Part shown: positions 20,634 to 37,800 of the stretch, piece after piece
How the letters are laid out: each line of letters starts with the position of its first letter
Numbering within the stretch: the first letter of the stretch is position 1
Virus record (IMG/VR): IMGVR_UViG_3300046171_000107
Location: 1 to 57,546 of that record
Source of the DNA: a virus
Taxonomy: Duplodnaviria > Caudoviricetes
Length of the DNA stretch: 57,546 nucleotides
Reading direction: 5' to 3' (one strand)
Made by a program: the position numbers and the translations under genes
The notes under the pieces: model-generated
Databases searched by the model: none
What the model saw: only the letters and a program-made list of their open reading frames with translations
Told to the model about the DNA's origin: nothing

Positions 20634-21322
20634 TACCGTCTCCGCATCAAACTACCAATGCCTTGGTGGACCTCGCCACCTTTGGCAAATTTCATGCCGT
20701 AGCCAATACCTATATCACCCGACAAGTTTGTGCCAATGCCCAAAGTGCCGGGGCCTACTTGTGTGTTATAACCGAAAGTGTCTGTTCCCGGCACGGAGCC
20801 AAAACCTAAGTTTTGTGCGTTCGCTATTGCCTGCCCAACGGAAGTAGGGGTAGATGGTGCGGATATAGATGGTGCAGCCATAGATATGTCTGCCAGTGAC
20901 GGCATACTAAAAGAAGGCCCAAAACTAGCTGTCTGTGCCGCCGAAGGTGAAGGGCCGGGAGCCGCGGTCTGCGGTCCGGGTGCCATAGCAGTTGGTGCCA
21001 TGTCAGCTAGACTTATTCCGGCAACAGGTGCCTGCGGGCCAACATCAAAAAAGCCACTGTCAAAAACTGCACTGCCCACGGCATCTTGAATGCCCTGCGC
21101 AACAGCCTGTTTTTCTGCTGATATAGCGGACATTTCGGGGGCGGGAGAAGTAGGGCGTCCACGTTCTGGCTCTTGAGCAGACGGATCATATCCCGGCTTT
21201 GTAGAGCCTCCCCCACCAGAAGAGCCGCCGTCACCGCCAAAGCAGCCGAACTTGAGTTCAAATTCGTTTAGATGCTCGAAATCATCGTGTAGGCCGTCCG
21301 ACCAACGCTTTTTATACAGCAC
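20633..21322 (-). CDS. Putative ejected virion protein with leader + CFGG motif
   Basis: ...FELKFG-CFGGDGGSSGGGG; C-terminal FAKGGEV..GIGSL. Confidence 0.7.
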   Translation of the reverse strand: MLYKKRWSDGLHDDFEHLNEFELKFGCFGGDGGSSGGGGSTKPGYDPSAQEPERGRPTSPAPEMSAISAEKQAVAQGIQDAVGSAVFDSGFFDVGPQAPVAGISLADMAPTAMAPGPQTAAPGPSPSAAQTASFGPSFSMPSLADISMAAPSISAPSTPTSVGQAIANAQNLGFGSVPGTDTFGYNTQVGPGTLGIGTNLSGDIGIGYGMKFAKGGEVHQGIGSLMRRR

Positions 21323-21761
21323 AGCAATATCTCCTTACATCTAGCTCTGACTGTACGCCGGTGGCATACCCAACACGCTTGCCTTTCATCTGGCGGATGA
21401 AGTTAGCTCCATCAAATGGATAGGTTTCAATATAACGCTCTGTCAGCCTTTTCTGTACAAATCTTCCTAATTTAAGTGCGTTCTGATACGGCGCAATGAA
21501 ATCTATCACATACAGCATACCATCTTTTGGTCCGAAGCTCCATATCTTAGCAGGCAGTTTTGCCGTTCCGTTTACATATCCTTCGCGTATATCCTGCGGC
21601 AGAAACGCATATGTGAAGAGGCCCGTGGGCCGCGAGTCTTCATACATGATCTCCAATTTGCCTTCCGCGATAGCCGGAAGAACAAGCCGGTCTAAGTCTG
21701 CAATGTACCAGTCCCGGTGCATATCTGATCTCAGCATCAGGTCTAGTGCGTCATAAATCAT
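21312..21761 (-). CDS. RTX toxin-activating lysine acyltransferase (HlyC/TAAT family)
   Basis: L..S..HRDW, VLPAI, P.G..TYA.L, W, LYVIDFIAPY match HlyC signature motifs. Confidence 0.8.
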   Translation of the reverse strand: MIYDALDLMLRSDMHRDWYIADLDRLVLPAIAEGKLEIMYEDSRPTGLFTYAFLPQDIREGYVNGTAKLPAKIWSFGPKDGMLYVIDFIAPYQNALKLGRFVQKRLTERYIETYPFDGANFIRQMKGKRVGYATGVQSELDVRRYCCAV

Positions 21762-24700
21762 CCCATAAGGCTCCCAATGCCCTGTTGACGGATCATTGAT
21801 GATGCAATGTCAGTTGGGAACATTGCGGCATAACGGCTCCTGTCCACAGGTCCGCTAGCCACGGGAGGAGGCGCAACGGGCTGTGGTTGAACAGGAGCAG
21901 CCGACGCTAAAGCGGTCGTGGGAGGTGCCACCTGTTGCGTCGGAACTTGTTGAGGTATGAGTGAAGGATCAATAGAAGTCTGGTCTCCGATTTCATTTAA
22001 AAACTCTTCTTCAGAAACGCCCGTTCCAGTGTCCTCCTCTTCCGCCCCTTCTCTAAGCAGATACGGCTGCATTGCTGCGCCACGAACACCAAACTGCTCC
22101 TGTAGAAACCGATTAACCTTCGAGAAAACGCGGGCCTTATCTTTTTGGTTTTGCGGCTTAGCCATTAAAGAAACAGTAAGATCTGGGTCTAAAAAGGTAA
22201 GCTCAAGGAGCTCTAACTTTCTTGAGGCCGGAACACGCATCAATATGTCTTTAGTCATAGACGAGCCGCTTTGCGCCATTTTCAGAGCACCGGGTCCGGG
22301 TTGGCCGCCCGTCAATGTAGAACCTAACTTCGTACCTAACGCAGAACCGGCTATACTCGTATAAAAATCCAAAATGGGGCCTGCTTGTGCCATAAATTCT
22401 GGGTCGTTTAGTTTTCCAGCGGCGTCCGCAGCCTCTACTCGAACAAGCTGTTTGGAAATAAAACGCATTCTACGCATATCTTGCTTAGACATAATATCAT
22501 AGGATTCCATTAAGTCTGCAAGACTAGTTCTGGGATGGTTAGGCAAAGGCTCAAACATAAACCGGTAGAAGGCACTGGGGCTAAATCCTGTACCTTGGCC
22601 GCCCGCTTCCATTAAACCCCTCTGCAAAATAGCTGTTTGCCACGCCTGCTGGATTTGAGGCTTTTCGTCTTTTAAGCTTTTTAACGAAGTAAGACGGAAA
22701 AGTTTCCTGAACTCGTTTATAGGGTTCTTGCTAGAATAAGCGTCATTTATGGCAACGGTAGGCGAAACACCATCAATTAAATCTGACAGATAAGTTTGGT
22801 TTTCTGCTTTTTTCAGTCCCGCATTAGCTCTTTTTGACATTACGTCAAAAGTAGCTTGAGCCGACGCCGCGTTTTCTAAGTCCAGCTTTAGTTGCGGGAA
22901 CAACTCCAACAAATCAGCATTTTCTTTTTTCCAATCAGTCAACCTTTTTGCATTTACGGTAAGTGTTCTTGTTCCGTCGGGGTTAATTTTTTCAGTCAAA
23001 GCTTTCTTCTGGGCATCTCGAAGAGCAGACTCGACCAAATTGTCTACGGTTGTGAAGCTTTCTGAAACGCCCTCAAAGCCTTGATTTTTTGCAAAATCAT
23101 TGATGGCCTGCAACTGCTTCACGCGCAAGCCTGTGATGGAGGCGTTTGACTTTACAAACTCTTCCACCAGCAGTTCCATCGGAACACGTCGTTCACCTGT
23201 CCCCATCTTAGAAAAAGTTTTGCCCAAGATGCCGCGGGTGTATACATCGTTTAATGCTGCGGAATACGCTCGTGCAGCATCGTAGGCGGCCATACCCTCC
23301 GGCACAGCGTTCAAATCATCTAAGATTGCTTCGGCAAACTCTCCCGCAATTCTAGCTGCATCCCGGTTTGGGTTTTGACCACTAGATAGACTTTTTGCTA
23401 AACTCAAGGCGGTAGAGCGCATTTCAATCAGTTCAGACGCGGTCAGCGGCTTCACTTCACGGGAGCCGACCTGCTTACTTAAAGCGTCTAACTCCCGCAG
23501 TTTCCGGTTAAATAAAACAGAAACGGGCAAGTTGGTGGTGCCTTGTTGTGCGGCTTCAATACGGGCTATGTTTTCTGGGCTGAAGTCATTCAAGTCCAGA
23601 CCTTCCGTTAGCTCATCAAATTTCTTACGAGCTTGCGGGTTAGTCTCTTTATATAGGGTGTTGAAAACACCCGTCTCCGGAACAGGGTCCGGAGCCTGTA
23701 GTCCCAACTCAACCCTAGAGTTGTTAACAAACTTAGTTATAGGTTTAAGCGCCTCGTTTATAGTCTCTTGATTTTCTGGACGTTTTTTCTGGTTTTTTTG
23801 CCATGACTGCAAAAAACTAGGCAACGGGCCCCCGGGTTCGATGTTTTCAAACACGGGCACGTCTTCAACGGCCTGCCAAAGTTGTTTTTCTTGTTTGCGG
23901 GCAAAACCAAGTTGTTGGTCTATTACATTACCAAGTTGAAGGGATAAATTAGCGCGAGAAACATTAGCTGTTTGACCCGGTTGATCGGACAACCTTTGTC
24001 TAGCAGTTATTAAATCGTCTACAGCGTTTCTAAGACGAGTGTTGATGGTATCTTCAAACATTGATTTGCGTAGACGAGCAGCCTCCCGCAAAGATGTTTC
24101 GGAGCCTTCTTGAATTAAAGAGTTGATAAATAATAAGCCAAATTCTTTAGCATCCGCATCAGCTTTTTGTCGAGCAGCATCCAACTTCATATTATTAGAC
24201 GCCTGCGCGGACTCCACCGCCATGAGAACAGGATCACCTGTTCTTTGCGCGGCGGTAAACTTAACTCCGGGAAAGAGTTCGTCAAACAGCCCCCTGATCT
24301 CAGGGTTGTTTAACTCTTCCGTAAGTTTTACATAATCGCCGCCATACGTTTCGTAAATTTCATTTATACGATCAAATATACGTTTTTGACGTGCGTTAAT
24401 AGCCTGCTGTTCAATACTTTGAGGGTCCGCCGTCTCAATAATTTTTTCCATTCGAGCCAGTGTTGTAGGCAACGCTCTTGCAACAAACGAGGCAAAAGTG
24501 TTGCCCCCTGCGAACTCGCCAAAAAGACGTGCAGGAGTAGACCCCGGTGCAATACTTTCCGCACCATACGCACCCAAAGATGCACCACCCCCCACAACAG
24601 TTTCTGCAAAAATTGTTGATTTTGGAGCGGCCCTACTTGTTTTACCAAGGTTGCCAAGAAGCTCTTCTGCCGCCGCAGAAAAACGCATTGCTTTGTTAGG

Positions 24701-25375
24701 TTTAACACCTTCAGATAATCCGTTCAAAAGGTTAGCCGCACCCCACCCAACATCTTTTCGGATTTGAAAACCAAAAGACAACCCCCCTATTGACCCGCCC
24801 AGTGTTCGCGCCATTTCTAGTGCAGGGCGTTGTCCGGGTGGAACAACTTGGTCGGGGCCCAAAAGTTGTTCTTCAATGTCGTCCATAAAGTCGTATGTGA
24901 GGAAAGATGCCCCAATTCCGGCGACAACCGGAGTTCCCAACTGCACGGTAGCAGACAGCCAGTTTGTAGGAGGCCGCTTTAAAGTTCGAGCCCCGACAAA
25001 TTTTGCGGTTTCCATTCCAACAGCCACACTAGGGGCCGTCTTGAACATCTCCCCAAAGAACCCTCTCTTTAAGTCGGCGGGCTCCGCGTTGCTAAAAAGA
25101 ACAATAATGTCGTCGGGCATCAACGTCCGATCAATAGGCGGCTTATCTGAATAACCGGGTAACCGATCCAAGATACCCGCGGTGCCGTCTTGCAGCCCTT
25201 CGTAAGTAAGGAAATTTGGGTCTTGTTCTAATTCCGTGGCAAAGTCGCCTTGGAAAGTGTTCACCAAATCCTTTGCAAGTGCTTCTGACGGCTCGTTAGT
25301 AAACAGACGGAAATCGTCAATTACTTCGGGGGTCAGTTGTACACGGTTGCCTTCAAGGCTAATCATATCCGACAT
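21758..25375 (-). CDS. Large internal virion/ejection protein
   Basis: 1205 aa, helical, in the typical podovirus ejectosome position; ends in GIGSLMG. Confidence 0.65.
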   Translation of the reverse strand: MSDMISLEGNRVQLTPEVIDDFRLFTNEPSEALAKDLVNTFQGDFATELEQDPNFLTYEGLQDGTAGILDRLPGYSDKPPIDRTLMPDDIIVLFSNAEPADLKRGFFGEMFKTAPSVAVGMETAKFVGARTLKRPPTNWLSATVQLGTPVVAGIGASFLTYDFMDDIEEQLLGPDQVVPPGQRPALEMARTLGGSIGGLSFGFQIRKDVGWGAANLLNGLSEGVKPNKAMRFSAAAEELLGNLGKTSRAAPKSTIFAETVVGGGASLGAYGAESIAPGSTPARLFGEFAGGNTFASFVARALPTTLARMEKIIETADPQSIEQQAINARQKRIFDRINEIYETYGGDYVKLTEELNNPEIRGLFDELFPGVKFTAAQRTGDPVLMAVESAQASNNMKLDAARQKADADAKEFGLLFINSLIQEGSETSLREAARLRKSMFEDTINTRLRNAVDDLITARQRLSDQPGQTANVSRANLSLQLGNVIDQQLGFARKQEKQLWQAVEDVPVFENIEPGGPLPSFLQSWQKNQKKRPENQETINEALKPITKFVNNSRVELGLQAPDPVPETGVFNTLYKETNPQARKKFDELTEGLDLNDFSPENIARIEAAQQGTTNLPVSVLFNRKLRELDALSKQVGSREVKPLTASELIEMRSTALSLAKSLSSGQNPNRDAARIAGEFAEAILDDLNAVPEGMAAYDAARAYSAALNDVYTRGILGKTFSKMGTGERRVPMELLVEEFVKSNASITGLRVKQLQAINDFAKNQGFEGVSESFTTVDNLVESALRDAQKKALTEKINPDGTRTLTVNAKRLTDWKKENADLLELFPQLKLDLENAASAQATFDVMSKRANAGLKKAENQTYLSDLIDGVSPTVAINDAYSSKNPINEFRKLFRLTSLKSLKDEKPQIQQAWQTAILQRGLMEAGGQGTGFSPSAFYRFMFEPLPNHPRTSLADLMESYDIMSKQDMRRMRFISKQLVRVEAADAAGKLNDPEFMAQAGPILDFYTSIAGSALGTKLGSTLTGGQPGPGALKMAQSGSSMTKDILMRVPASRKLELLELTFLDPDLTVSLMAKPQNQKDKARVFSKVNRFLQEQFGVRGAAMQPYLLREGAEEEDTGTGVSEEEFLNEIGDQTSIDPSLIPQQVPTQQVAPPTTALASAAPVQPQPVAPPPVASGPVDRSRYAAMFPTDIASSMIRQQGIGSLMG

Positions 25376-25381
25376 TTGATT

Positions 25382-28372
25382 TTACCCCCTATCCAAATCT
25401 TTAGTTTTAGAGGTGTTTTGAACACCGCTGCTACCAAGGAACCGCTCATAGCCCAAAATTGCGCCCGTTGTCTCGCCGATCATGTTTTGCAACTGTGGTA
25501 AAAGGCGTCGTGCGTCACCAACATCTGCTTTTGAATATTCTTCCGGGTTATCCAAAATCATTTTGGTTTCAACATATGTTCGAGCTAAAGTGTTTCTAAC
25601 CACTTTTAACGACTCCAATGCACCCACATCTGTCTTAAACAGACTTGGACGGAAGCCCGAGACCTGATCTTTTAACAACTCCATGTCTAAGGCGAACAAT
25701 TTACCGCTTAACCCTGACCGCTCCAAACGTATTACGTCTTTAGCAAGTTGTTCTAGCTGTTTATCGGCTCTGGCAGTAATTTTACCGGCTTGACCAGCAT
25801 AACCTGAACCAATTCCAATCTCAGAAGCCTGACCGGCAACCGCGTTAAAGAAGCGCTGAATACCGGAAGTAAAGCCTTGAGACTTGGTGTAATCCACCCC
25901 AGTGATAACAAAGGTCGGGTCCGCGGTAGCTACATCAATATTGACTTTGTTTGTCTCTGGATCGACCAGCGGCTTATCTTGAGGCACAAGTTGAGCAAAC
26001 TCTGTTGAAGTAAACCCAAGACTTTGCAACGGAACCGGAGAAGTTAACTCAGGGTTGTTTAACAGTCGTGTACGGATGGCTTGTTTTACATACTCTGGAA
26101 GAGGCCGTTTCTGCATCAAGCCACGAGCATCTGGAACTCCAGCAGTATACAGCGTGATAAATGTCTCCATTTTATCGTCTTTTGCGCCTTGTGCGTATAA
26201 ATCCAATGCGCGAACCCCGTCAATTTCTGCGGTAGCGAAGTATTTAGCTGCTTTATCGGCGCTTCCGCTACCAAAGATATCCGGGGGAGTTTCGGCTTTT
26301 TCATATTTAGTAAGAGCATCTACGCCGTTGTCTTCTTGCACCTGTGCGATTTGACTGTCACTGAGATATATGGGCGTACCCGGTGCAACGGTAACGTCAT
26401 TCACAGTTATTGGCTTCGTGTTGACTACGATTTTAGTAGTTTCGGGTTTAGGTTCTCCTGTAGCGGTTCCTAGCGTCCAACCCTGTTGCGCCAAGCTGTA
26501 ATATTCGGTAGATCCTTCTGGTACGGACTTTGCGTCATCGCCCTTACGCATATTAACAAGCGGCGCAGTTTTAGGATCAAACGCCCCGCGAAGAGTTGCC
26601 CCATCTTTAATAGCCTTCCAATACTCAGGGCTATTCTTTTCAAACGCCTTAACTTCTGTCCCGCCGCCTTCTTTCGGCACGTTCAAGTTGACCGCGTCTT
26701 TCGTTGTGACGGGCACAGAACCAGAAAGCAAGCCGCCTTTTCCGCCTTCAGAAACAGGCTTAATGGCCTTAAGGTAAGGGTCTGTTCCGGGCGTCATAAC
26801 CTGCTGTGACCCGTCGGGGAATATTATGTTTACGTCGCCATTCTTTTCTGGTGCTTTGTAGGGAACGGTAGAGGTCTCAAAACCGTCAATTGTGGTAGCT
26901 TGATCGGGGGTGACGTTAATTACATCGCCTACCGATAGAGTAGCACCTTCATAGATAACCGGTTTAGTAACAGTATATGCCTTCGCGGCAGAGCCCTCGC
27001 CGGGTTTTTCCCACGGCTTCAAAGCATCTGGTTCTACCCTTGCCACCTGTGCGGGCCGCAAGTTCAATAGTTGCCCCGCGGGGTAAGTTTTATCCCCAAT
27101 GGTTACTTGTCTTGTAGTAACAAAGGGTTTAGACGCCTTTACCGCAGTTGTCTCGTTTTTAAGCTTTTGCAAATCACGGGCCTGTTCCGCGGCCACTTCC
27201 GCCGCCAACTTAGTTTCAGCCGACTGCAATGCCGCCAAATCAACTGCCCGCTCTTCCTTCTTAGCCGCTTTCTGCAACTCAAGCTGCTGTTGAGCACGTG
27301 CGCCAATAGTTTGTGGCAGTTTTGTACTAGAAGCCGCCATAGCTAAGCGCTCTGCGGGGCTCAAACCTCTACGCTCACCTTGCATTGGAGCCGCAAAAGT
27401 AAGCGCTGTCTGAGCAATGTCGAACAGCATTTGAGCTTGAGTTAGCTTCTTCTGTTCTTCAAGATCCGCGGCGCGTGATGCGGCGTCCCCTAATCCATAT
27501 TCCCGGTAAATTTCTTTTTGCGCGTCCATCAACTGACGCAAACGACTGCCGTCGCTTTGCGCAGGTGTGTTGCTGGCGGCGTCTATCTTAGCGCGTAAAT
27601 CCTGAAGTTGCTTGGGCGTCGTTCCTATCTGCGGCCCAAAATAAGGGGTTAACGCATCAAAGTCTACGCCGCCATTGGCAAAGTATTTTACCGGCTGGTT
27701 GTCTCCGCGGCGGACCAGCCCGCCTTGATTAAAATTTACGGGCGGGGGACCCCCCATCCCCGCTGGTGGCATCGAAGGAGCCATTTCTGCCGGAGGCGGA
27801 GGAGCTACAGTAGACATAATGCCTTCTGCCATCGCGCCTTCAACGGGCGCGGTCATCTCTTCCGCCGCCAAGCCCCCAATACCTTGGTCAACTGCTGCCA
27901 TCATCATAACCGGCTGAACGAGCGCAAGAACAGACTCTGGAGTCTGACGCGCATCTTCCGGCCCAACAACGCCAGAAAGTTCGTCATAACGATCTTCTAG
28001 CGTGGCATTGTCACCACGTATTACATTCATTACTTGTTCGTAGTCTTCAACTTCGTCCAAGTTTTCTAAATTATCTGCAACCTGCGCAAGCATACCCTGC
28101 ATCGCGCCAGTATCCATTGTTTGTGCGCCCATTGCCTCTGCCTGCTCTTCAGGAACCCCGGAGGCCGCACCCATCATTGCACCAGAAGGTGGCATCATCG
28201 GAGGCATACCTTGTGGAGGCATCATTGGAGCCATACCACCCTCTTGCATCGGGATAACGCCCCGACCCATTAGGATGTCTTTTTGTGTGATCTGGCCGTC
28301 GCCACTATAGTCAGGGAACGCTGCCCCGCCTTTAGCAAACATCTGCCGGTTCATTACGCCTCTGTTCATCAT
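25382..28372 (-). CDS. Internal virion/ejection protein
   Basis: 996 aa; four xxGG motifs; EF-hand/dockerin-like loop DYSGDGQITQKD. Confidence 0.65.
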   Translation of the reverse strand: MMNRGVMNRQMFAKGGAAFPDYSGDGQITQKDILMGRGVIPMQEGGMAPMMPPQGMPPMMPPSGAMMGAASGVPEEQAEAMGAQTMDTGAMQGMLAQVADNLENLDEVEDYEQVMNVIRGDNATLEDRYDELSGVVGPEDARQTPESVLALVQPVMMMAAVDQGIGGLAAEEMTAPVEGAMAEGIMSTVAPPPPAEMAPSMPPAGMGGPPPVNFNQGGLVRRGDNQPVKYFANGGVDFDALTPYFGPQIGTTPKQLQDLRAKIDAASNTPAQSDGSRLRQLMDAQKEIYREYGLGDAASRAADLEEQKKLTQAQMLFDIAQTALTFAAPMQGERRGLSPAERLAMAASSTKLPQTIGARAQQQLELQKAAKKEERAVDLAALQSAETKLAAEVAAEQARDLQKLKNETTAVKASKPFVTTRQVTIGDKTYPAGQLLNLRPAQVARVEPDALKPWEKPGEGSAAKAYTVTKPVIYEGATLSVGDVINVTPDQATTIDGFETSTVPYKAPEKNGDVNIIFPDGSQQVMTPGTDPYLKAIKPVSEGGKGGLLSGSVPVTTKDAVNLNVPKEGGGTEVKAFEKNSPEYWKAIKDGATLRGAFDPKTAPLVNMRKGDDAKSVPEGSTEYYSLAQQGWTLGTATGEPKPETTKIVVNTKPITVNDVTVAPGTPIYLSDSQIAQVQEDNGVDALTKYEKAETPPDIFGSGSADKAAKYFATAEIDGVRALDLYAQGAKDDKMETFITLYTAGVPDARGLMQKRPLPEYVKQAIRTRLLNNPELTSPVPLQSLGFTSTEFAQLVPQDKPLVDPETNKVNIDVATADPTFVITGVDYTKSQGFTSGIQRFFNAVAGQASEIGIGSGYAGQAGKITARADKQLEQLAKDVIRLERSGLSGKLFALDMELLKDQVSGFRPSLFKTDVGALESLKVVRNTLARTYVETKMILDNPEEYSKADVGDARRLLPQLQNMIGETTGAILGYERFLGSSGVQNTSKTKDLDRG

Positions 28373-30204
28373 CCGAATAACCCTGCTTTCTGAGCCCCTG
28401 CTGCCGCTGACAGACCCGCTATGCCCAGCCCCATAAATTGTTGAGCCGGTGATACGCTTGGTGCCGTCGAAGCGGCAATAGTCTGCTGTGTTGACGGAGC
28501 ACCCTTATAAATGTCTGACAAGAATGACAGACGTTGATACGGCTCGTAAAGCTGCGCCAAATCGCTTTGACGCTTGGCTTCCAGAGTCGCCTGTTGCTGA
28601 GCCTGCTGCCGCCCGCCAAGCTCGTATTGAGTTTGTAGGTTACGCAACCCAGTCTGCTGAGCCAGTTCACCAAGGCTAGCCTGCTGAAGACCCAATGTAC
28701 CCAACGCTTGACCGGCTTGCAACCCAAGCTGACCCAGAGCCTGACCGCCCTGTAGACCAAACTGACCGTACTGAAGCCCGATGTCGCCCATCTGACCAGC
28801 CATACCAGCCAGTGCCTGCTGACCCTGAAGGCCAAGCTGACCGCCTGCTTGTGCGCCGGAAAGACCAAGTTGTGCTTGCGCCTGACCCAACTGACCGCCC
28901 TGCTGAGCGATCTGAGCGGCAAGCTGTTCTGTAGAAATACCCAGACGTGCAGCCTGTTCTGCCATAGCCGCCTGCTGTTGTGCGGCGGACAGACCCAACT
29001 GACCCGACTGTAGCCCTGTTTGTGCGGCAAGTTGCTCTGCGGACAGACCCAACTGACCTGCGGCTTGACCCGCTCCAATTCCAAGTTGTGCTTGCGACTG
29101 ACCAAGAGCGCCAGCCTGCTGTGCCGCCTGAAGCGCTGAACCCGCACCAGCTTGACCAAGCTGACCGGTAAGACCTGCCGCCTGTAGCTGACGTGCCCGT
29201 GCCTGCTCGAAAGCGGCCTGTGCCTGTTGCGCTGCACTCTGATAACCCTGCGCCCGCATTTGTGCGGCTGTACGACCCTGCTGCTCCAACTGAGCACGGG
29301 CTGTTTCTGCCGCCTGAACACCAGCGCGAGAACCGCCAAAAGCCCCAGCACCCACCGCCTGTGCGGCCTGCTGTTGCTGCATAATCTGCCCCTGACGCGC
29401 AATATCCTGCATAGCCTGCTGAACTGCGGCATCTTCATAAGGGCTCATATATTGAGCAATCGTAGATGGGTCAAACTGTTGTGCGCCACCGGCAAGACCG
29501 GCTATACCCGCTTGTGCGGCACCCATGCCCATACGTCCGGCGGCCTGCGCCTGACGAATAGCGGCCTGAGTTCCGGGGGCCGCGGCCCCTGCTGCGCCTA
29601 GAATTTGCCGACCGGCTTGTCCCGTGATACCACGAGCGCCCTGAATTGCCTGCTGTGCACCGGTTTGCGCCGTGCCAAGTTGACCCGGAACGAGCCCTGC
29701 GGCTGCTAAAATACTACCAATACCGGCTTGCGATTGGCCGCGGGCCGCGAGAGATGCTGCGTCCATCGCGCTCAACGCGCCGCCAGTTACACCCTGACCA
29801 TATTGAAGTGCGCCTTCAATCCCCTGCTGTGCTGCACCAACCTGAGTTGGAACACCCTGCATCGCGCCCAAAAGGCCCGCTTCTGCCGCCTGACGATAGG
29901 GGTCGGCGGTCTGCATAGCCCCTGTAATATAAGGTGAAGCTGCACCGTATACACCGCCAAGCTGCTGCTGAGCATCGCCCATCGTGTAGCCCGCTTCGGT
30001 GAGATACGGCATATAACCGCCAATACCGCCAGCTTGTTGAGCGGCGGCAAAGGCTAAGTCTTGAAGACCCGTAAACCCAGCTACTTGCTGGGTAGGGAGC
30101 GTAATCCCTTTATCAGAGAGATCTTTTGCAGACTGAAGAAGCCCTAGTTTATAGGCTTCAATCTCCGGGGCTTCGCGGACTATCTGTTCGGTAACTTCAG
30201 CCAT
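28369..30204 (-). CDS. Gln/Ala/Gly-rich ejection (DNA transfer/pilot) protein
   Basis: About 11-residue QAGQLGL repeats; QYMSPY, GAFGGSR, PYQRLSF motifs; hydrophobic C-terminus. Confidence 0.7.
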   Translation of the reverse strand: MAEVTEQIVREAPEIEAYKLGLLQSAKDLSDKGITLPTQQVAGFTGLQDLAFAAAQQAGGIGGYMPYLTEAGYTMGDAQQQLGGVYGAASPYITGAMQTADPYRQAAEAGLLGAMQGVPTQVGAAQQGIEGALQYGQGVTGGALSAMDAASLAARGQSQAGIGSILAAAGLVPGQLGTAQTGAQQAIQGARGITGQAGRQILGAAGAAAPGTQAAIRQAQAAGRMGMGAAQAGIAGLAGGAQQFDPSTIAQYMSPYEDAAVQQAMQDIARQGQIMQQQQAAQAVGAGAFGGSRAGVQAAETARAQLEQQGRTAAQMRAQGYQSAAQQAQAAFEQARARQLQAAGLTGQLGQAGAGSALQAAQQAGALGQSQAQLGIGAGQAAGQLGLSAEQLAAQTGLQSGQLGLSAAQQQAAMAEQAARLGISTEQLAAQIAQQGGQLGQAQAQLGLSGAQAGGQLGLQGQQALAGMAGQMGDIGLQYGQFGLQGGQALGQLGLQAGQALGTLGLQQASLGELAQQTGLRNLQTQYELGGRQQAQQQATLEAKRQSDLAQLYEPYQRLSFLSDIYKGAPSTQQTIAASTAPSVSPAQQFMGLGIAGLSAAAGAQKAGLFG

Positions 30205-31955
30205 TATGCCATCGCCTTTCCACGAGACTCAAGACCGCGCATCATGTCATACATATTATTGATGCCCTGCCTCATGTTCCCGTTACCCAGACCACGAACC
30301 GCGTCGGTAGTCATTACAAATTCACCCGGCATCAGCATAGCGCGGACGCTGTCCTGACCCGGAATACCCTCATCTGGCATAATGCCGCCCACACGACGTG
30401 GGAAAATCTCGCCGCCTTCTGCCGCATATTGCCCATCAAAAGCATAAATGGGTTGATCTTGTGGCTTCATAAACGGATTAACAAATGTGCCCTGACCGGG
30501 GACAATCGTATACGGAGATGCAATTTCTGTTGGACCGGTCGAATACCGCGGATCAAGGTTTTGAACGCGATACTTTTCAGGGTCTGCCGCAATCAGGTCT
30601 TCACCAGTCGGGCCAGTATACTGAGACATATCTAGCTCTTCCTGCTCTGGAGCAGTAAAGAAGCCTGCACCTGCTGCAAGCGCTGTGCCTGCCGCGGCGG
30701 CTGGGCCAAAGGTGCGGAGAAGACCGGGGCCAATGCTGGAAGCAGTTACGTTTTTCATAGCCTCTAACCCTGCCGCTGCCGCTTGAGACTCTGTAGCCCC
30801 CGGAAGAGCTTTAACCGCATTAAACGCGTCGCTATACGCAGTATTTTTAGCCAAAGCTACTTGAGCTTCAGTCGGGCCTGCGGGCATAAACAGTTCTTTA
30901 CTTGCATCTAAGAAGCTCTTGTCCCCCGTCCCAACGTCCGTAAACATATCAGTTAAGGTATCGCTAATCGTGCTAGGCTTATAGGCTTGAGTTACCGCCT
31001 CCTTCGTAGTAATCGGAACTTCTTTAAGAGTGTCTGTCACCGAATCACGGGTAATCAACTTGTCTGCGAGTTGGTCGGTGCTAGTTGGTGTAGACACCGT
31101 TTTCTTACCAGCCACATCAAAGGTCTGAACCTCTGGACCGGAAAGCTGAGCGCCTTCTGACAGCGCCTTGTATGAAGTGCCCCCTTCTGAAGCAGGGCCG
31201 CCCTTCATGTTAGCAAAAGAAGCACCAGAGAAGTCGCCCGTAAACGCCTTACCGATGTTTGAGAAGCCTTCCGTCAAGTTAGCTGGGTTAGCAGCGTTAG
31301 AAATGCCTGACATGAAGCCTTCACCAGAAATCGCGCCAGATACGCCCGAGAACAGGGCACCTGTACCACCCGAAATCAATGCCGACTTAAAGGCGTCTTT
31401 TATATTTCCGCCATTTATCAAGGTAGCGATACCAGAACCAAGTGCGGCACCGTAAATAGGACCCATGAACATAGACCCGACAATCGGCAGAACAATCGGG
31501 GCTACTTTCTTGATGACCTTTTTGACCGACTTAACAACCTTCTTGACGGCCTTTTTAACTTTACGAAAAATCTTTTTAAGAAAAAACTCTGGCAAACCCG
31601 TGTCTGGGTTAATTGAGTTAGCGTCAGAACCAACAACATAGCGCTCTGGGTCTTCAATACCCATATCGCGCAAATGGTCAAAAATAGAATCCCTGAGTTC
31701 AGGGTTGTCTTCAATCAGAGCTTTTGGAACAATCAATTCACCGGTTTCAGCGTGAACCAGTTTATCGTCACCATAACGGCCATAAGAAGCCATTCGAGAG
31801 GCAACATCCTGAAAATTAGCAATACCTGCGCCGCCAAACTCGCGTTCAGCGTCGGCGCGGTTCATCGCCTCAAATTCATCATCATCTAAATAAAAGTCAG
31901 CAATACCCCCTGCTGGGATGACTAACTCTTCTTCTTTTAATGCTGCATCTGCCAT
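30204..31955 (-). CDS. Ejection/pilot protein with N-terminal pro-domain, cationic amphipathic helix and TM segments
   Basis: GRYGD..VH..GE...NPDTGLPEF-FLKKIFRKVKKAVKK...; C-terminal G..DSVRAML.PGEFV; TAATG-coupled start. Confidence 0.7.
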   Translation of the reverse strand: MADAALKEEELVIPAGGIADFYLDDDEFEAMNRADAEREFGGAGIANFQDVASRMASYGRYGDDKLVHAETGELIVPKALIEDNPELRDSIFDHLRDMGIEDPERYVVGSDANSINPDTGLPEFFLKKIFRKVKKAVKKVVKSVKKVIKKVAPIVLPIVGSMFMGPIYGAALGSGIATLINGGNIKDAFKSALISGGTGALFSGVSGAISGEGFMSGISNAANPANLTEGFSNIGKAFTGDFSGASFANMKGGPASEGGTSYKALSEGAQLSGPEVQTFDVAGKKTVSTPTSTDQLADKLITRDSVTDTLKEVPITTKEAVTQAYKPSTISDTLTDMFTDVGTGDKSFLDASKELFMPAGPTEAQVALAKNTAYSDAFNAVKALPGATESQAAAAGLEAMKNVTASSIGPGLLRTFGPAAAAGTALAAGAGFFTAPEQEELDMSQYTGPTGEDLIAADPEKYRVQNLDPRYSTGPTEIASPYTIVPGQGTFVNPFMKPQDQPIYAFDGQYAAEGGEIFPRRVGGIMPDEGIPGQDSVRAMLMPGEFVMTTDAVRGLGNGNMRQGINNMYDMMRGLESRGKAMA

Positions 31956-32188
31956 TAGCCTGCTCCACCGGACATAGATTCCGGCATAGTTACCGTAATC
32001 ATTGTACTTCTTTTTTCGCTTCCCGTCCATGAATTACCGCAATTTGGGCAATTCCCGCTTGGATACGACAGGATTTCAGCCGGAGTGTCCACTTCGTTGT
32101 CGCAAGAAGCACAACTTACAATGTCCCGGCTCGTTGATGGACGCCACTTACTGCCATCCGCCATAGTAATAATAGTCTCGTCACTCAT
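31955..32188 (-). CDS. Small Zn-binding protein
   Basis: CASC...CPNC. Confidence 0.7.
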   Translation of the reverse strand: MSDETIITMADGSKWRPSTSRDIVSCASCDNEVDTPAEILSYPSGNCPNCGNSWTGSEKRSTMITVTMPESMSGGAG

Positions 32189-32481
32189 GGTGTTGATACC
32201 GTGACGCTGCCCACGGCCCCTGTTGCTGTGGATCCGCGTGGATAGGGCTTATTAGATACCGTTATCCGTAACTCGTCTCCATGTTGAAATATATCTCCTA
32301 CGCGAAGCTCAAAATTGTCTTGCTGCAAATCCGGCAACGCTAAAGCAGACGCCTGCCACGGCCCCGGATTGTTAACTTGCTGCAAGAATACCGAAAACGC
32401 CCGCACAACCTCTGCCATGAACCGCGGGTCGTATTCCTGCGGTGCGTTTGGAAACAGCGGTTGTACTAGACCCCTCGACAT
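32185..32481 (-). CDS. Hypothetical tail-associated protein
   Basis: Coupled ORF; P.AP.EYD motif. Confidence 0.7.
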   Translation of the reverse strand: MSRGLVQPLFPNAPQEYDPRFMAEVVRAFSVFLQQVNNPGPWQASALALPDLQQDNFELRVGDIFQHGDELRITVSNKPYPRGSTATGAVGSVTVSTP

Positions 32482-34406
32482 TAGCGCCTACCATCTGGTC
32501 GTATATCTACTCGCGGCGAACCCAATCGCCACGCTACACCCATATCACTAGACTCAATCTTCATAGCAAAAGAGCGGCCACGAAGCCTCAAATTCACCTG
32601 ATTAGTAAACTGTTCCACGGGCACCGTAGCTGTCCGTGTTACCGCATCCGTGCTAGTTTGCAGGTACGGGCCGCCCGGATAATTTCTTGTCTGCAAGATA
32701 AAATCAGCTTGTGGCGACGCCGCCGTAGACGCATCGAAGGTCAAATCCGGTATCAAACGGCGCATAAAGATGAAATTCTCCCCATCACCGATGTCCATCT
32801 GACTGCTCTCAATATATGAGGTAATAGCGCTAGCGGGGCTTGTGCTGCCGTCATCAAGGCCTTTTTCATGCAGGTAGAGGTAGCCGTCCTGACTTGCCGC
32901 AATCGGGAACTGGTTAATCCCACGGTCAAGCCATACAGACCGGGCAAGAGCGCCATAATACCAGACCTGCTCTTGGTAATTGTAAATCACATAGCGGTCG
33001 ATATCATCTGAATTAGCCGACGGATACAACCACCAGATCTCAGAGAAACTGCTGTTAATCCCTGCGGTTACTTTTTCTGCCTGCGCGGAGTTAAAGTCAT
33101 TAAACACATATGACCGCACCGCACAAGGCAACTTTTGAACCTGCCCGTTGTAGACATAAAACTCCTCGCGGCCCATCCAGAACACGGTGTCTTCTACCGC
33201 AATAGACGCCAAAGGCCCTGCAATGGTGAGGTTAGTGGATATCTCACTAATACCAAAAGTAAACGGAGGCCCCAAATACTGCATCGCGTGAAGCGACACG
33301 TCCGTAAACACCAGCACCTGCTGCCTTGTTTCAACAGCCGTTACAATCTGTGAGCCAGAGCCGATCCGCAGATCACCGGCAGTGTTGGTAGCCAGAGACT
33401 CCCATGTAGTCGGGCTTTCTTGGCTAGAAAACCGAATAAGTAGCGGATCCTGCACCCCAATGTCATTCTGCGGGTCACATCCAAAAGCAATGATGTGCCT
33501 GTCTCTGTCTGAAACCAAGACCTGCTTTGCAATAGTGGGGGTCGTCGCGTCTGCGCCAGCTAGGTCAGAAAGCGCTACCGCACGGGCAAAAGGAGCCGAA
33601 CTCGTGCTTTTATCCCAATAATAGATGCCGCCATCGCGGATGTTGAAGACCAAGTCTTCACCGAAGTTGTCGTGACCCCAAATCCGTAAAATGTCGCCAA
33701 CCGCCGTCAGACTAGCCGCCGAACCCCAGCCGCCGCGGCCCCATGTGCCTGCACCCCAACCAGTGCCCGCCACAGTCGTGTCCAAGCCGGTATTTACTTG
33801 ATACGCGCCGACTACAGCCGCGCCACCGTTGCCGGTATCTGACGCATTTGCCACGACAAGCGTGGGCGTATATTGCCCATCAATAGTAATGTCCGCCAGA
33901 GTAGCTACTGCGCGGGCTTCAATTTCGTATGTGTTGGAATTTACAATCGCGGTAATCTGATACTCTTGGTTGAGTATGTCCGCGGTAATGTCGCCCCCAA
34001 GCGTTACAGCGCCACTAAATGTCACAAAGTCGTTTTCTAACGCCCCGTGGTTGGTATCCGTTACTGTAATAGTAGACGACCCATTGGTGGCGGCAAAGGT
34101 AACATCGCCTGCCGCAGTAGTTTGCCGCAAAGGCGTAATGTCGTTATACGCGCCGCCCTCGTTGATGTAGTACTTGAGGTGCGTACCCACACTTAGATAC
34201 GACTCCCCGGAGAGTGCTACAAACGGGTGAAGCGCACGACAGGTGCCTAAAAAGCTGTTTACCGACTGTTTTTCCCAGCCGCCTATCTTTTCAGGCGTAC
34301 CAAACCGAAAACGAACCTTGTCACAGTCGAACCACCCGCCCTCATTGGTGTATGAGGTGGTTTCTCTGTTAACACCCGGTCTGAATTGCAGCTTGGTTAA
34401 AGGCAT
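32481..34406 (-). CDS. Tail nozzle / packaged-DNA stabilization protein (P22 gp10-like beta-propeller)
   Basis: Propeller-like repeats (IRFSSQE, EIWWLYPS, RYVIYNY..WYYG); genomic position. Confidence 0.7.
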   Translation of the reverse strand: MPLTKLQFRPGVNRETTSYTNEGGWFDCDKVRFRFGTPEKIGGWEKQSVNSFLGTCRALHPFVALSGESYLSVGTHLKYYINEGGAYNDITPLRQTTAAGDVTFAATNGSSTITVTDTNHGALENDFVTFSGAVTLGGDITADILNQEYQITAIVNSNTYEIEARAVATLADITIDGQYTPTLVVANASDTGNGGAAVVGAYQVNTGLDTTVAGTGWGAGTWGRGGWGSAASLTAVGDILRIWGHDNFGEDLVFNIRDGGIYYWDKSTSSAPFARAVALSDLAGADATTPTIAKQVLVSDRDRHIIAFGCDPQNDIGVQDPLLIRFSSQESPTTWESLATNTAGDLRIGSGSQIVTAVETRQQVLVFTDVSLHAMQYLGPPFTFGISEISTNLTIAGPLASIAVEDTVFWMGREEFYVYNGQVQKLPCAVRSYVFNDFNSAQAEKVTAGINSSFSEIWWLYPSANSDDIDRYVIYNYQEQVWYYGALARSVWLDRGINQFPIAASQDGYLYLHEKGLDDGSTSPASAITSYIESSQMDIGDGENFIFMRRLIPDLTFDASTAASPQADFILQTRNYPGGPYLQTSTDAVTRTATVPVEQFTNQVNLRLRGRSFAMKIESSDMGVAWRLGSPRVDIRPDGRR

Positions 34407-34896: not shown

Positions 34897-37800
34897 TTAG
34901 TTGGACTCAAGTGCGGCTATACGAGCATTAGCCTCATCTAGCTGTTGTTTCAGTTCTTTAACTGCATTAACCAGATACCAAGTCATGTTATCTGGGTCTA
35001 CGGACAGAACGCCTGTAGATTCTTCTTTTACCATATCTGGTAATACTTGCTGTATCTCTTGTGCGATTACACCAAGCTGTAAGCCTTTTTTCCTGATAAC
35101 ATTTTGAGCATCAAGTTCTGTAATTTCATCTTCAGTGCGATACTCAAAGTTACGAACTTGAACTTGTGTGATTGCATCAAGACCAATTGTGTTGTCTACA
35201 ATGTTTTTCTTCAGTCTGCGATCAGATGTTGTTGACCACGAAGATGAGTTGTTTCCTTGATAAACACCACCACCGCCGGGATAAATAAATCCAGTTGATG
35301 TTCCTTTGTCAGTAATGTCTGTGTTATCAGCAACAATGTTGATTGCGTAGTTTGCAGTGCCACTCGACCTTGCTCTACGACCAATATAAACATTACCACT
35401 ACCTGTCGTCAGGCTGACACCAGACCTGTAACCAATAGCCACATTGTCTGTGCCAGTTGTTGTGGTGTATGCAGAATCAGCACCTACATATGTGTTACGT
35501 GCGCCTGTGGTCATTGCCCCACCAGCATAATAACCTAAACCAGTATTAAGTGTGCCTGTGCTAGTCGTGAGAGCACTTCTACCAACAGCAGTGCTATAGT
35601 TAGAAGTTGTATTCGAGTTTAATGCATTGTCTCCAACAGCCGTATTTTGACTGCCTGTGGTATTATCTTGCAGTGCCAGATAACCCACTGCCGTGTTGTT
35701 ACCCCCAATGGTGTTGGAGTATAGCGATTGACCACCAAGTGCAGTGTTGGCTGAACCTGTTGTGTTGCTATAAAGAGGGCGATAACGACCTACAGCAGTG
35801 TTTGCTGTTCCAGTGGTGTTATTGTATCCTGCTTCATAGCCAAAAGCCGCAATGTTGCCTGATGTAGTAGAAAATGCAGCCCTATAGCCAACAGCCGTAA
35901 GATAATTGGCTGTTGTGGTATAACCAGCCTGATAGCCCACCGCTGTGTTAGCACCTACCGTAGTGGAACTAGTCAATGCTTGATGCCCAACAGCGACAGA
36001 ATAATTACCTGTAGTCATCGCATCTAGTGAAAACCCACCAATGGCGACATTATAACCACCAGTGGTGTTGTTGAGCAGGGCATTTTTACCCAAAGCAACA
36101 TTGTTAGCACCTGTTGTGTTACTGGATAATGCGTCAGCACCTACAGCAGTTAGATAAAGACCTGTTGTGTGGTCTCGCCCCGCATTTCGTCCAACAGCAG
36201 TGTTGTTGGTGCCAGTAGTCTGCTCCAATGCGGATTGTCCAATGGCAGTGTTGTGATCACCTGTAACATTTGAAGTGAGTGCGGATCCACCTAAAGCTGT
36301 GTTGTTAGCCCCAGTGGTTGTTGATTGAGCCGCATACCGACCAACAACGGTATTGTTCTGACCTGTAGAAATATTTTGACCAGCGTGAGAACCAATGGCA
36401 GTGGTGTAGGATCCAGTTGTAAGGCTAGACCCTGCTACAAAACCGACTGCTGTGGTTTGGGTGGCAGTAGTGAGGGTGGATAAGGCTGAACGGCCAACTC
36501 CAGTATTACTATCCCCCGTAGTACAAGCGTCTAAGACTAGTCCACCTACTGCTGTATTGTCGGAGCCAGTGGTGTTGTTTTTAAGGGCATCATAGCCCAC
36601 TGCGACCATATAATTATTAGAGGCTACAGTTGGAGCGTGACTCAACAGAGCCTGATAACCGACAGCGGTGTTTCTTTCACCTAATGTGTTTGCTTCAAGT
36701 GCATTATAGCCAAATGCAGTGTTATCTGATGCGGTGGTGTTGCTAGCCAAAGCACCCCTACCAACACCTGTATTACCATCTCCAGTGGTGTTTTCACCTA
36801 AAGCAACATACCCAACTGCTGTATTTGTGGTGCCAGTGGTGTTAGAATAAAGTGCTTGATAGCCAATTGCCGTCATGCTGTGACCAGTGGTGGAGGCCTC
36901 ACCTGCTTTATAACCCATAGCGGTGTTGTTGTTGCCTGTATAGGCTTCTAAAGCCTGAGAACCGACAGCAGTGTTGCCTACTCCTGTAATATTTGAGGCA
37001 ATTGCAAGATAGCCTATACCAGTGTTGTTGGAGGCAGTTGTTTGTGCGCCAAGAGCAGACACACCCATTGCCACATTGTTTCCACCTGTCGTGTTTGCAT
37101 CCGCAGCGTTTAAGCCAACAGCGGTGTTACTGTTTCCGGTAGTGTTTGCCCCAAGTGCATTTGCACCTACGCCCGTGTTCCATATGGCTGTCGTGTTTGC
37201 ATCTAAAGCAGATTGTCCAACTGCGGTGTTCTGATAACCAGTAGAATTTGAGGTAAGAGCCTGATATCCAACAGCAGTGTTGTTATCACCTGTGGTATTC
37301 GTGCCTAAAGCCCCTCGTCCAACAGCCACGCCATTGTTGCCTGTCGTGTTGTTTGTCAGAGCTACATATCCAACTGCTACAAGGCTGCTGCCGGTGGTGT
37401 TGTCGTAACCAGCCTGATAACCTACGGCTGTATTGTTGCCTGCGGTGGTGTTACTCTCAAGTGCCTGATGACCAAGTGCTGTATTATTACTGCCTGTTGT
37501 GTAACGCAGTGCATAGTTACCCGCTGCTACATTTTTTGTGCCAGTGATATTGCTAAATAAAGCATTACTACCAAAAGCCACATTGTCACTAGCTGTGGTG
37601 TTGCTGGATAGTGCTGAATTACCAAAAGCGTTATTGCGTGTGCCAGTGGTGTTTGCATCTAACGAGTATACACCCACTGCTGTGTTGTTAGATGCGGTGG
37701 TGTTTGAAGTTAAAGATTGAAAACCTACGGCGACATTGTTTGAGCCATCGGTGTTTGCCTCAAGAGCCTCTCCACCAACAGCCACGTTTTGTGCGCCAAT

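Follow-up and report, generated by a model that had tools for sequence, protein, structure and literature searches.

The 583-residue protein encoded at positions 30204..31955 of the window (the whole 57,546-nucleotide stretch of DNA analysed here, a phage genome of 57.5 kb, complete and bounded by terminal repeats) is probably a virion-borne DNA-ejection protein that works much as tape measure or pilot proteins do, in a marine podovirus akin to the HTVC023P-type pelagiphages. It joins an acidic N-terminal domain, a cationic amphipathic helix, Gly-rich hydrophobic segments, and a C-terminal domain with a motif common to tape measure proteins in one conserved architecture, and its gene follows the nozzle gene at the head of a run of large genes. 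We infer that this protein is part of the virion, is ejected, and inserts into membranes, and it most likely helps the phage through the host envelope when the DNA is injected. The family, which is conserved, so far unnamed, and very large, occurs in relatives of the HTVC023P-type pelagiphages, called the most abundant known marine viral group in a preprint (10.1101/2019.12.14.876532). The target protein is a concrete candidate for a factor with which phages of SAR11-like and other marine hosts cross the envelope.

The gene and its protein family

Translation starts at 31955, where a GGAG precedes the start codon by 7 nt and the end of the upstream ORF overlaps it as TAATG, and this site is also the start in 20 of 22 aligned homologues. 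The resulting ORF (30204-31955, minus strand, 583 aa) bears out the sequence strings and coordinates given for it in an earlier note on this DNA. We worked with three family alignments, i.e., A1 (22 homologues), A2 (60 diverse homologues), and A3 (74 sequences), and with a broader profile of the C-terminal domain, A4. The features that they delineate are as follows:

30204..31955, minus strand: entire gene with its stop codon, 583 aa (P0001)
31584..31955, minus strand: acidic domain at the N-terminus (residues 1-124, net charge -20), found conserved in both A2 and A3
31725..31781, minus strand: N-terminal block G-R-x-G-D-D..H...G-E-L-I-V-P, residues 59-77, with invariant residues
31584..31610, minus strand: junction motif NPDTGLPEF, residues 116-124, with invariant residues; relatives without the N-terminal domain begin at or near its end
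31506..31583, minus strand: Lys-rich amphipathic helix, residues 125-150, net charge +13; 26 residues long, directly following NPDTGLPEF
31221..31505, minus strand: Gly-rich hydrophobic (small-xxx-small) helices, residues 151-245; conserved Gly pattern, phrog_38799
30729..31220, minus strand: variable, poorly conserved spacer, residues 246-409, in A1 and A2
30648..30728, minus strand: second Ala/Gly-rich hydrophobic segment PGLLRTFGP...GFF, residues 410-436, from composition and A1
30207..30443, minus strand: C-terminal domain with tape-measure-type motif, residues 505-583; PHROG and PDB tape measure matches
30309..30368, minus strand: C-terminal block G-x-P-G-Q-D-S-V-R-A-M-L-M-P-G-E-F-V-M-T, residues 530-549, with invariant residues

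The family comprises 2060 proteins at E≤0.001 among 8000 candidates scored from a 90%-identity cluster library, and 5667 matches at E≤0.001 among 50%-identity cluster representatives. Short homologues were dropped as evidence of a split gene; at least one of them (P0126) ends as if by a frameshift, and many come from contig ends. The whole-family profile A2 retrieved nothing significant from the PDB (best E 0.39), and a full-length AF2 model built with 22 sequences was too poor for use (pLDDT 43.8). The article texts searched yielded no virion proteomics or structure of any family member, and a description of the target protein was likewise not found there.

Genomic neighborhood

The terminase, portal, capsid, fibre, and nozzle genes of this phage all lie on the minus strand, as does the target gene, and the following neighbors and landmarks are relevant to its role:

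32481..34406, minus strand: nozzle protein gene, 641 aa, two small ORFs upstream of the target gene; phrog_3287 and PDB chains
21758..30204, minus strand: another three large genes, whose products of 611, 996, and 1205 aa are presumably ejection or internal proteins; conserved order
21312..21761, minus strand: homologue of HlyC-type (RTX toxin-activating) lysine acyltransferases, 149 aa; PF02794, ApxC
49321-49833: GH108 lysozyme gene, away from the target gene

The nozzle assignment rests on matches to PDB "nozzle gp16" chains 8zkk_O and 8zkm_E (E 2.1e-7) and to 9nwi_Y (E 1.5e-13). This gene lies upstream of the target gene in 76 of 80 related loci, the other four having no upstream DNA, and the 611-aa gene lies downstream in 63 of the 80, with the remaining 17 contigs ending in or just after the target gene. 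Apart from DUF7210 in the 996-aa protein, no families were found for the three large downstream proteins. Placed after the nozzle gene and first of four large genes, the target gene thus has the position of a podovirus ejection block. The layout typical of the tape measure genes of long-tailed phages, which encode a helical protein of great length and are flanked by tail chaperone genes on one side and distal tail genes on the other, is not seen here, and tail tube, chaperone, and distal tail proteins had no matches among the ORFs scanned.

An acidic domain followed by a cationic helix

The N-terminal domain is net negative in all 60 homologues of A2 (-7 to -28, family median -15), and the summed charge of domain and helix does not exceed zero in any of them. 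Residues G59, R60, D63, H68, and E73 are invariant in its conserved block (60 and 74 sequences). At the junction, N116, P117, T119, E123, and F124 are invariant in 74 sequences, across which a longer form, N-S-x-N-P-x-T-G-x-P-E-F, is invariant or nearly so. The target ORFs of two complete genomes, 023Pt_psg01 and HTVC027P, lack the N-terminal domain and keep the C-terminal domain; that of 023Pt_psg01 starts directly at the helix and that of HTVC027P about 18 residues before it. Because of these two ORFs the junction is, judged by sequence, a natural module boundary.

The N-terminal domain alone matched no Pfam, PHROG, or NCBIfam family. Its AF2 model (74 sequences) reached a pLDDT of 64, and Foldseek assigned no fold to it (best E 3.9 in the PDB and 1.0 in BFVD, the latter an uncharacterised phage protein with 34% identity). 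A predicted complex of this domain (residues 1-126) with the C-terminal domain (residues 500-583) scored 0.08 against a mark of 0.32 in a run without controls.

The stretch FLKKIFRKVKKAVKKVVKSVKKVIKKVAPIV (residues 125-155, nt 31491-31583) contains the helix, whose hydrophobic moment of 0.85 at 100 degrees was reached by none of 5000 shuffles (shuffle mean 0.24). Moments of this size are typical of membrane-active helices. A cationic helix of 15-33 residues is present in every one of the 60 diverse homologues, with net charges of +4 to +14 (family median +9) and only 2 acidic residues among 1425 positions in all, and the full-length AF2 model predicts, at low confidence, a helix at residues 123-164. 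The cationic amphipathic helix noticed earlier is therefore real, and it is strongly selected and adjoins membrane-type segments.

These segments, also described in the earlier note as hydrophobic and Gly-rich, contain 20% Gly at residues 153-245 and peak at a 19-residue Kyte-Doolittle value of 1.75 within residues 146-174 of a membrane-type stretch at 146-180, the only segment to pass the classical transmembrane hydropathy level. Small-xxx-small repeats occur at residues 161-211 and 417-435, and phrog_38799 matches residues 128-210 (E 0.003). In A1, glycines 165, 173, 175, 182, 183, 196, 199, and 204 (G165 G173 G175 G182 G183 G196 G199 G204) are conserved in the first region, and P410, P418, G431, F433, and P436 are invariant in the second. 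Hydrophobic membrane-type segments of this kind are a trait of tape measure proteins.

Since the N-terminal domain is anionic in all 60 homologues, it could mask the cationic helix electrostatically. A stronger version of this idea, in line with the earlier note, takes the domain for a pro-piece that cuts itself off at EF/F or is cut off there by a protease of phage or host, whereupon the exposed helix would perforate the host membrane in the manner of an antimicrobial peptide. The nearly invariant junction, the charge balance across the family, the two ORFs that begin at or near the helix, the hydrophobic moment, and the fact that T7 gp7.3 begins with a helix of like kind all fit such processing. 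However, AF2 and Foldseek (PDB and BFVD) revealed no protease fold in the N-terminal domain to back the earlier suggestion of an autoprotease, and no prohead protease was found among the 10 head-module ORFs scanned. Domain and helix charges are weakly correlated (Spearman -0.23, p 0.08, a statistic that ignores relatedness), the remainder of the target protein is acidic too so that acidity is not specific to the supposed pro-piece, and the conserved junction is equally compatible with a hinge or a docking site. We therefore regard cleavage of a pro-piece as unlikely.

Local likeness to T7 gp7.3

The earlier note had called the helix T7 gp7.3-like and had given the N-terminus of gp7.3 correctly; by our count, 18 of 25 residues are identical. 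The corresponding Pfam family PF11653 (VirionAssem_T7) scores 24.1 bits for the entire protein (E 5.2e-5), 21.4 for the fragment, and 22.1 for the six-frame translation against a gathering cut-off of 25 bits, and the match is confined to residues 131-162 and to positions 3-34 of the 99 in the profile. Of 60 family members, just 2 reach E≤0.01 with PF11653, BLASTP with composition adjustment found nothing (best E 22), and the family profile has no match in T7 at E≤0.01.

Proteins of the gp7.3 type are short and helical, typically 100-140 aa, with basic clusters at the N- and C-termini and an A/Q/P-rich and acidic centre; six or more copies of gp7.3 sit inside the adaptor-nozzle channel and are ejected at infection. 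The target protein has 583 aa, an internal basic cluster (residues 125-150), and a C-terminal domain of net charge -2. Genes for gp7.3-like factors lie directly upstream of the portal gene according to a preprint (10.64898/2026.05.18.726046), while the target gene (30204-31955) and the portal gene (52097-54538) are about 20 kb apart. Because PF11653 stays below threshold and matches so few homologues, and because the gene lies away from the portal, we read the likeness to gp7.3 as convergence or low complexity and not as membership.

It is accordingly rather improbable that the target is an enlarged orthologue of T7 gp7.3 or of the phiKMV-like gp34, i.e., a channel assembly factor or wedge that would hold the DNA end with its helix and the nozzle with its C-terminus and be ejected first without any role at membranes. 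Besides the near-threshold score and the identities in the helix, such an orthologue would fit the proximity to the nozzle gene, the range of 45 to 450 aa given for gp7.3-like factors in that preprint, and the position of gp7.3 inside the channel, where according to PMC11784390 the C-terminal loop rests on the nozzle and the basic part contacts the DNA. But the similarity does not extend beyond a low-complexity helix, and gp7.3 has nothing that corresponds to the conserved hydrophobic helices or to the tape measure motif. The comparison does bear on the helix itself, which may not act on membranes because the comparable basic N-terminal part of gp7.3 is assigned to contact with the DNA end and not to membrane lysis (PMC11784390). 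As to the interpretation in the earlier note, the helix and the anionic domain thus hold, whereas gp7.3 membership fails and the autoprotease is not supported.

A neighboring acyltransferase gene

The HlyC-type gene scores 59.7-59.9 bits with PF02794 (cut-off 25) and matches ApxC (4whn_A, E 2e-5). The earlier note had proposed the lysines of the helix as targets of such an enzyme, and the window does encode one, but it co-occurs with the target gene in only 3 of 25 related target-bearing records and in 0 of the 3 of those that are at least 90% complete. Comparing the helices of the three HlyC-positive loci with seven others (one unparsed) revealed no distinguishing feature. We see a slim chance that the acidic mask is removable or displaceable, that the helix is the first to exit the nozzle and makes an opening in the outer membrane, and that in the HlyC-bearing subclade (this window and three relatives) a lysine of the target or of a neighboring ejection protein is fatty-acylated. 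If true, this would make it the first phage ejection protein with a lipid attached, and the lipidation of CdiA by an HlyC-family enzyme (PMC8510554) offers a parallel. Both the arrangement of acidic mask and cationic helix and the neighboring acyltransferase are directly testable.

The C-terminal domain carries a tape measure motif

The C-terminal domain (about 75 residues, net charge -2) has a motif of the G-P-G-T-x-x-S-D-S-I-P-A-x-L-S-x-G-E-F-V type found in siphophage tape measure proteins, and D535, A539, G544, E545, and F546 are invariant in its conserved block (60 sequences). It matches tape measure families phrog_934 (E 2.5e-6) and phrog_37649 (E 1.3e-3). Against the PDB, profile A4 matched two tape measure chains, 8zdo_S at two places (E 1.9e-10) and 8rk3_A once (E 9.3e-4); these chains were found only with this broader profile, and the domain of the window alone had no match. 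The ESM Atlas returned only unnamed viral clusters for residues 500-583 (0.94); a weak lead from this resource to crAss cargo protein 1 (0.79) was unconfirmed by Pfam and rejected. We found no literature linking tape measure proteins with a "GEFV" motif. PMC11445458 and PMC13033339 present the view that tape measure proteins leave the particle ahead of the DNA and form a channel through the membrane. The motif falls outside the built parts of the JBD30 (33 C-terminal residues) and Douge (residues 1658-1699) models.

The most conserved columns of the protein lie in the two end blocks (residues 59-77 and 530-549), which the earlier note took for a duplication. Their similarity is marginal by hhalign (P=0.013, probability 3%) and by column-shuffling (P=0.017 and 0.035), and an HMM of the C-terminal domain places N-terminal domains in that same register, the best single sequence among 74 related ones reaching E=2.8e-4. 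However, hhalign of the independent alignments A3 and A4 did not recover this match and ranked another stretch first (P=0.23). Both blocks thus exist, but their homology is weak (P about 0.01-0.04) and not reproduced, the one observation of the earlier note to fall short beside its strings, coordinates, helix, and Gly-rich segments.

A model for ejection

As an ejection protein, the target would wait inside the portal-nozzle channel or just above it, fixed there by a docking module at its C-terminus and perhaps by another at its N-terminus, with the cationic helix lying against the DNA end or neutralised by the acidic domain. Opening of the nozzle would expel it ahead of the DNA, and its amphipathic and hydrophobic helices might then insert into the host envelope and help to build a DNA conduit jointly with the three large proteins encoded downstream. 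That the target instead is a non-virion late membrane protein for lysis or superinfection exclusion, as a cationic helix followed by a hydrophobic one and a weak holin PHROG match of the homologue in phage DSL-LC04 (E 0.068) might suggest, is very improbable given that its gene lies between nozzle and large conserved genes at every locus with enough DNA, that its C-terminal motif is common to tape measure proteins, that the GH108 lysozyme gene lies elsewhere, and that 583 aa with long variable acidic regions are unlike holins or spanins.

Comparison with known systems

T7 gp7.3 (PF11653, phrog_1320) and the phiKMV-like gp34 "wedge" share with the target a Lys/Val-rich helix followed by a Gly/Ala-rich stretch, and gp7.3 is a small ejected tail-channel protein just as the target gene adjoins tail-channel genes. 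The target is six times longer than gp7.3, and its hydrophobic helices, which are conserved, and two more domains set it apart. Cationic antimicrobial peptides of the defensin and cathelicidin type are made with anionic pro-pieces, and the target similarly places an anionic segment directly before a strongly amphipathic cationic helix (-20 versus +13); unlike in these peptides, the helix sits in the interior of a large phage protein with several domains, and the sequences are unrelated.

The ejection genes of P22 (gp7/gp20/gp16) and T7 (gp14/gp15/gp16) likewise follow the hub or nozzle gene and, like the target gene, open a run of large genes. A role in a trans-envelope conduit is expected for the target as for these proteins, although searches of Pfam, PHROGs, and NCBIfam and a PDB profile search linked the target, by sequence or by profile, to none of the characterised ejection proteins of podoviruses.

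A true homologue is encoded by DSL-LC04, a metagenome-assembled phage from Dishui Lake (WJZ48115.1; profile E 8.2e-62, 33% identity over residues 348-578), with the same module order and gene neighborhood. It has 759 aa with an extra N-terminal extension, a shorter N-terminal domain, and P-Q-E for T-G-E in the block. This protein is annotated, by an automatic name, as a tail tape measure protein upstream of a "DNA transfer protein" and matches seven tape measure PHROGs at E≤0.011.

The tape measure proteins of Pseudomonas phage JBD30 (gp46, PDB 8rk3) and mycobacteriophage Douge (gp16, 8zdo/8zdq) have the motif S-D-S-[IM]-x-A-x-x-S-x-G-E-F in common with the target as well as hydrophobic, Gly-rich segments, and the Douge chain carries two copies of the motif, a precedent for its repetition. 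Unlike these proteins of 1158-1699 aa, the 583-aa target belongs to a podovirus-type genome with a nozzle gene, lacks a long coiled coil for measuring a tail, has an acidic N-terminal domain and a Lys-rich helix, and carries the motif in its last 55 residues. A tape measure motif of long-tailed phages is now linked to a short-tailed phage, and its presence in both suggests a common docking or ejection module, still uncharacterised, of long- and short-tailed phages.

A candidate ejection protein in a short-tailed marine phage

The most likely reading of the 583-aa target-gene product is that it serves a short-tailed marine phage as a tape-measure-like ejection protein. Direct terminal repeats bound the window and the 57,546-bp virus record is complete, with almost all of its genes carried on the minus strand.

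Genes of the window discussed here
55652-57097 (-), large terminase
52097-54538 (-), portal
49321-49833 (-), GH108 lysozyme with a peptidoglycan-binding domain (E 4.7e-29), inside the head-gene block
48646-49098 (-), GroES-like Cpn10 gene (E 1.8e-10), inside the head-gene block
45681-46586 (-), major capsid protein
34897-38820 (-), fibre or spike of 1307 aa with an S74 chaperone end
32481-34406 (-), nozzle of 641 aa, matching phrog_3287 ("virion structural protein")
31955-32188 (-), ORF of 77 aa containing two C-x-x-C pairs and matching zinc fingers weakly (E 0.006-0.008)
30204-31955 (-), target ORF, 583 aa
28369-30204 (-), 611-aa protein largely composed of Gln/Gly/Ala/Leu repeats (Q-L-G-L-S type), without family match
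21312-21761 (-), homologue of HlyC-type (RTX toxin-activating) lysine acyltransferases (PF02794, 59.9 bits; ApxC 4whn_A, E 2e-5)
low-coordinate end of the window, replication genes

The closest named phages, with ca. 51-53% identity of the portal protein, are 023Pt_psg01, DSL-LC04 (metagenome-assembled) and the pelagiphages HTVC027P and HTVC023P, followed by roseophages CRP-901 and CRP-902 (44%). HTVC023P likewise has a GroES gene, located after its portal gene.

A GGAG lies 7 nt ahead of the target start at 31955, whose codon shares TAATG with the stop of the preceding 77-aa ORF. The same start position is found in 20 of 22 aligned homologues, and the remaining two are longer through upstream extensions as called. 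Homologues of the 77-aa ORF occur in only part of the related loci. Two small ORFs separate the target from the 641-aa gene. Its product is identified as the tail nozzle by matches to PDB chains named "nozzle gp16" (8zkk_O and 8zkm_E, E 2.1e-7), and it also matches, at E 1.5e-13, a chain present in six copies in 9nwi under the label "Capsid and scaffold protein". This gene lies upstream of the target homologue in 76 of 80 IMG/VR loci, the other four having no upstream DNA in the record. Downstream, the Q/G/A-rich 611-aa gene, at which the window reaches its highest GC (0.587 at 28-30 kb), follows in 63 of the 80 loci, and in the other 17 the contig stops within or just past the target gene. 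Genes for proteins of 996 aa and 1205 aa come next wherever contigs reach far enough.

A conserved cationic helix followed by hydrophobic segments

The strings quoted from this protein in the earlier note are all present where it had placed them.

Features of the target protein
residues 116-124, NPDTGLPEF junction
residues 125-155, nt 31491-31583 (-), Lys-rich stretch
residues 410-436, second Ala/Gly-rich hydrophobic segment

Residues 125-150 form a predicted helix with a net charge of +13. Its hydrophobic moment peaks sharply at 100 degrees per residue with a value of 0.85, which none of 5000 shuffles attained (mean 0.24). Each of 60 diverse homologues (33-55% identity to the window protein; alignment A2) has a comparable helix of 15-33 residues with a net charge of +4 to +14 (median +9), a median moment of 0.75 and just two acidic residues in 1425 positions. 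Because helix lengths in this alignment fall at 15, 18-19, 22-23, 26-27, 29 and 33 residues, the helix gains or loses about one turn in evolution while its amphipathic phase is kept. Directly C-terminal of it comes K-K-x-A-P-I-V-L-P-I and then a region in which glycine makes up 20% of residues, some of them conserved, and small-xxx-small repeats occur; one 19-residue segment reaches a Kyte-Doolittle value of 1.75.

In some family members (the 313-aa P0170 and one sequence of A2) there is also a LysM domain (PF01476; best E 4.3e-12), which fits a protein that meets peptidoglycan.

Terminal domains and the possibility of a cleaved pro-domain

The C-domain (residues 505-583) has matches among tape measure PHROGs but none in Pfam or NCBIfam. 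A profile built from 51 diverse C-domains also finds two tape measure proteins represented in the PDB. In gp16 of mycobacteriophage Douge it aligns to residues 967-1003 and 1414-1449 (E 1.9e-10), and in gp46 of Pseudomonas phage JBD30 to residues 1020-1055 (E 9.3e-4), though both structures model the extreme C-terminus only and the motif lies outside the built parts. The motif is also found in ORFs of Caulobacter phage RW and Planktothrix phage Pag-Yong1.

The N-domain (residues 1-124) matches no family in Pfam, NCBIfam or PHROGs. It is acidic in all 60 homologues (net -7 to -28), and its negative charge exceeds the charge of the helix in every one of them. The N-domain is optional: DSL-LC04 encodes a shorter form, and the complete genomes of 023Pt_psg01 and HTVC027P have homologous ORFs that lack it and keep the C-domain, starting directly at the F-F-K-K helix start in the former and ca. 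18 residues before the helix in the latter.

The earlier note had taken the N-domain as a pro-domain that is removed at the junction to free the helix. This remains a live alternative, given that the junction is invariant, that natural forms without the N-domain exist and that an anionic N-domain is paired with a cationic helix, but we consider it unlikely. A scan of 10 head-module ORFs revealed a GroES-like protein, the GH108 lysozyme and a capsid protein but no prohead protease. The suggestion that the N-domain itself is an autoprotease found no support either, since its AlphaFold2 model (74 sequences; mostly helical, pLDDT 64) matches no fold in Foldseek, proteases included.

The same note had considered the blocks at both ends of the protein (residues 59-77 and 530-549) homologous. 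Each is the most conserved part of its domain, with G59, R60, D63, H68, E73 and P77 invariant in the N block and D535, A539, G544, E545 and F546 in the C block among the 60 sequences of A2. Several tests give weak results that agree on the register: hhalign on A2 sub-alignments ranks this pairing first among local alignments (P 0.013, probability 3%), column shuffling gives P 0.017 and 0.035, and an HMM from 51 C-domains aligns several N-domains in the same register (best per-sequence E 2.8e-4 among 74 related sequences). However, hhalign between independent alignments of the N-domain (A3) and C-domain (A4) did not recover the pairing and instead matched the helix that precedes the N block to the final helix of the C-domain (P 0.23). 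A duplication of the end blocks is thus possible from these comparisons but not established. Such repetition has precedent because the Douge tape measure protein has two copies of the C-type motif.

A second weak end-to-end likeness links residues 44-60 (G-I-A-N-F-Q-D-V-A-S-R-M-A-S-Y-G-R; nt 31776-31826) and 564-580 (G-I-N-N-M-Y-D-M-M-R-G-L-E-S-R-G-K; nt 30216-30266), and runs in an order that mirrors the G-E blocks. hhalign ranked this pair first in two comparisons, the one of A3 with A4 included, but not significantly (P 0.17 and 0.23).

Local likeness to T7 gp7.3

The N-terminus of T7 gp7.3 given in the earlier note is exact (NC_001604), and residues 131-155 of the window protein share 18 of 25 positions with it in an ungapped alignment. 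The proposed likeness holds at this local level but does not extend to family membership: PF11653 scores 24.1 bits on the target (E 5.2e-5), slightly below its cut-off of 25, spans just profile positions 3-34 of 99 and reaches E<=0.01 in just 2 of 60 family members. BLASTP with composition adjustment gave no match, nor did the target-family profile match T7 at E<=0.01. Moreover, a preprint places gp7.3-like genes upstream of the portal gene (10.64898/2026.05.18.726046), a position that the target gene does not occupy. That the target is an enlarged gp7.3 is therefore quite improbable despite the matching helix. We conclude that two K/V/A amphipathic helices resemble each other locally, which may serve as a lead on helix action. 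For T7, a cryo-EM paper (PMC11784390) has gp7.3 touch the DNA end in the tail channel through its basic N-terminal part and the nozzle through its C-terminal loop, with gp7.3 first out when the nozzle opens.

An acyltransferase gene and comparison with known systems

Placed immediately after the 1205-aa gene, the HlyC-type gene closes the presumed block of ejection-protein genes, and its alignment with ApxC keeps the H-R-x-W and I-D-x-I-A-P stretches, which we take to hold the catalytic His and Asp of such enzymes. The lysines of the helix had been suggested as its targets. The acyltransferase gene is indeed present, but it occurs in 3 of 25 related records encoding the target and in none of the three that are at least 90% complete, which rules it out as a general partner for the helix. 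Roseophage CRP-235 has an HlyC-like gene in a similar place, flanked by a fibre-like gene on one side and large unnamed genes on the other, and in a pelagiphage preprint HlyC appears without comment in a genome-map legend.

Literature searches found no functional study of a phage HlyC-type enzyme, and no description of the target family in the searchable literature. The ejection proteins of P22-like and T7-like phages are encoded at the same gene position as the target. As a tape-measure-like ejection protein, the target family would fit within this known kind of system.
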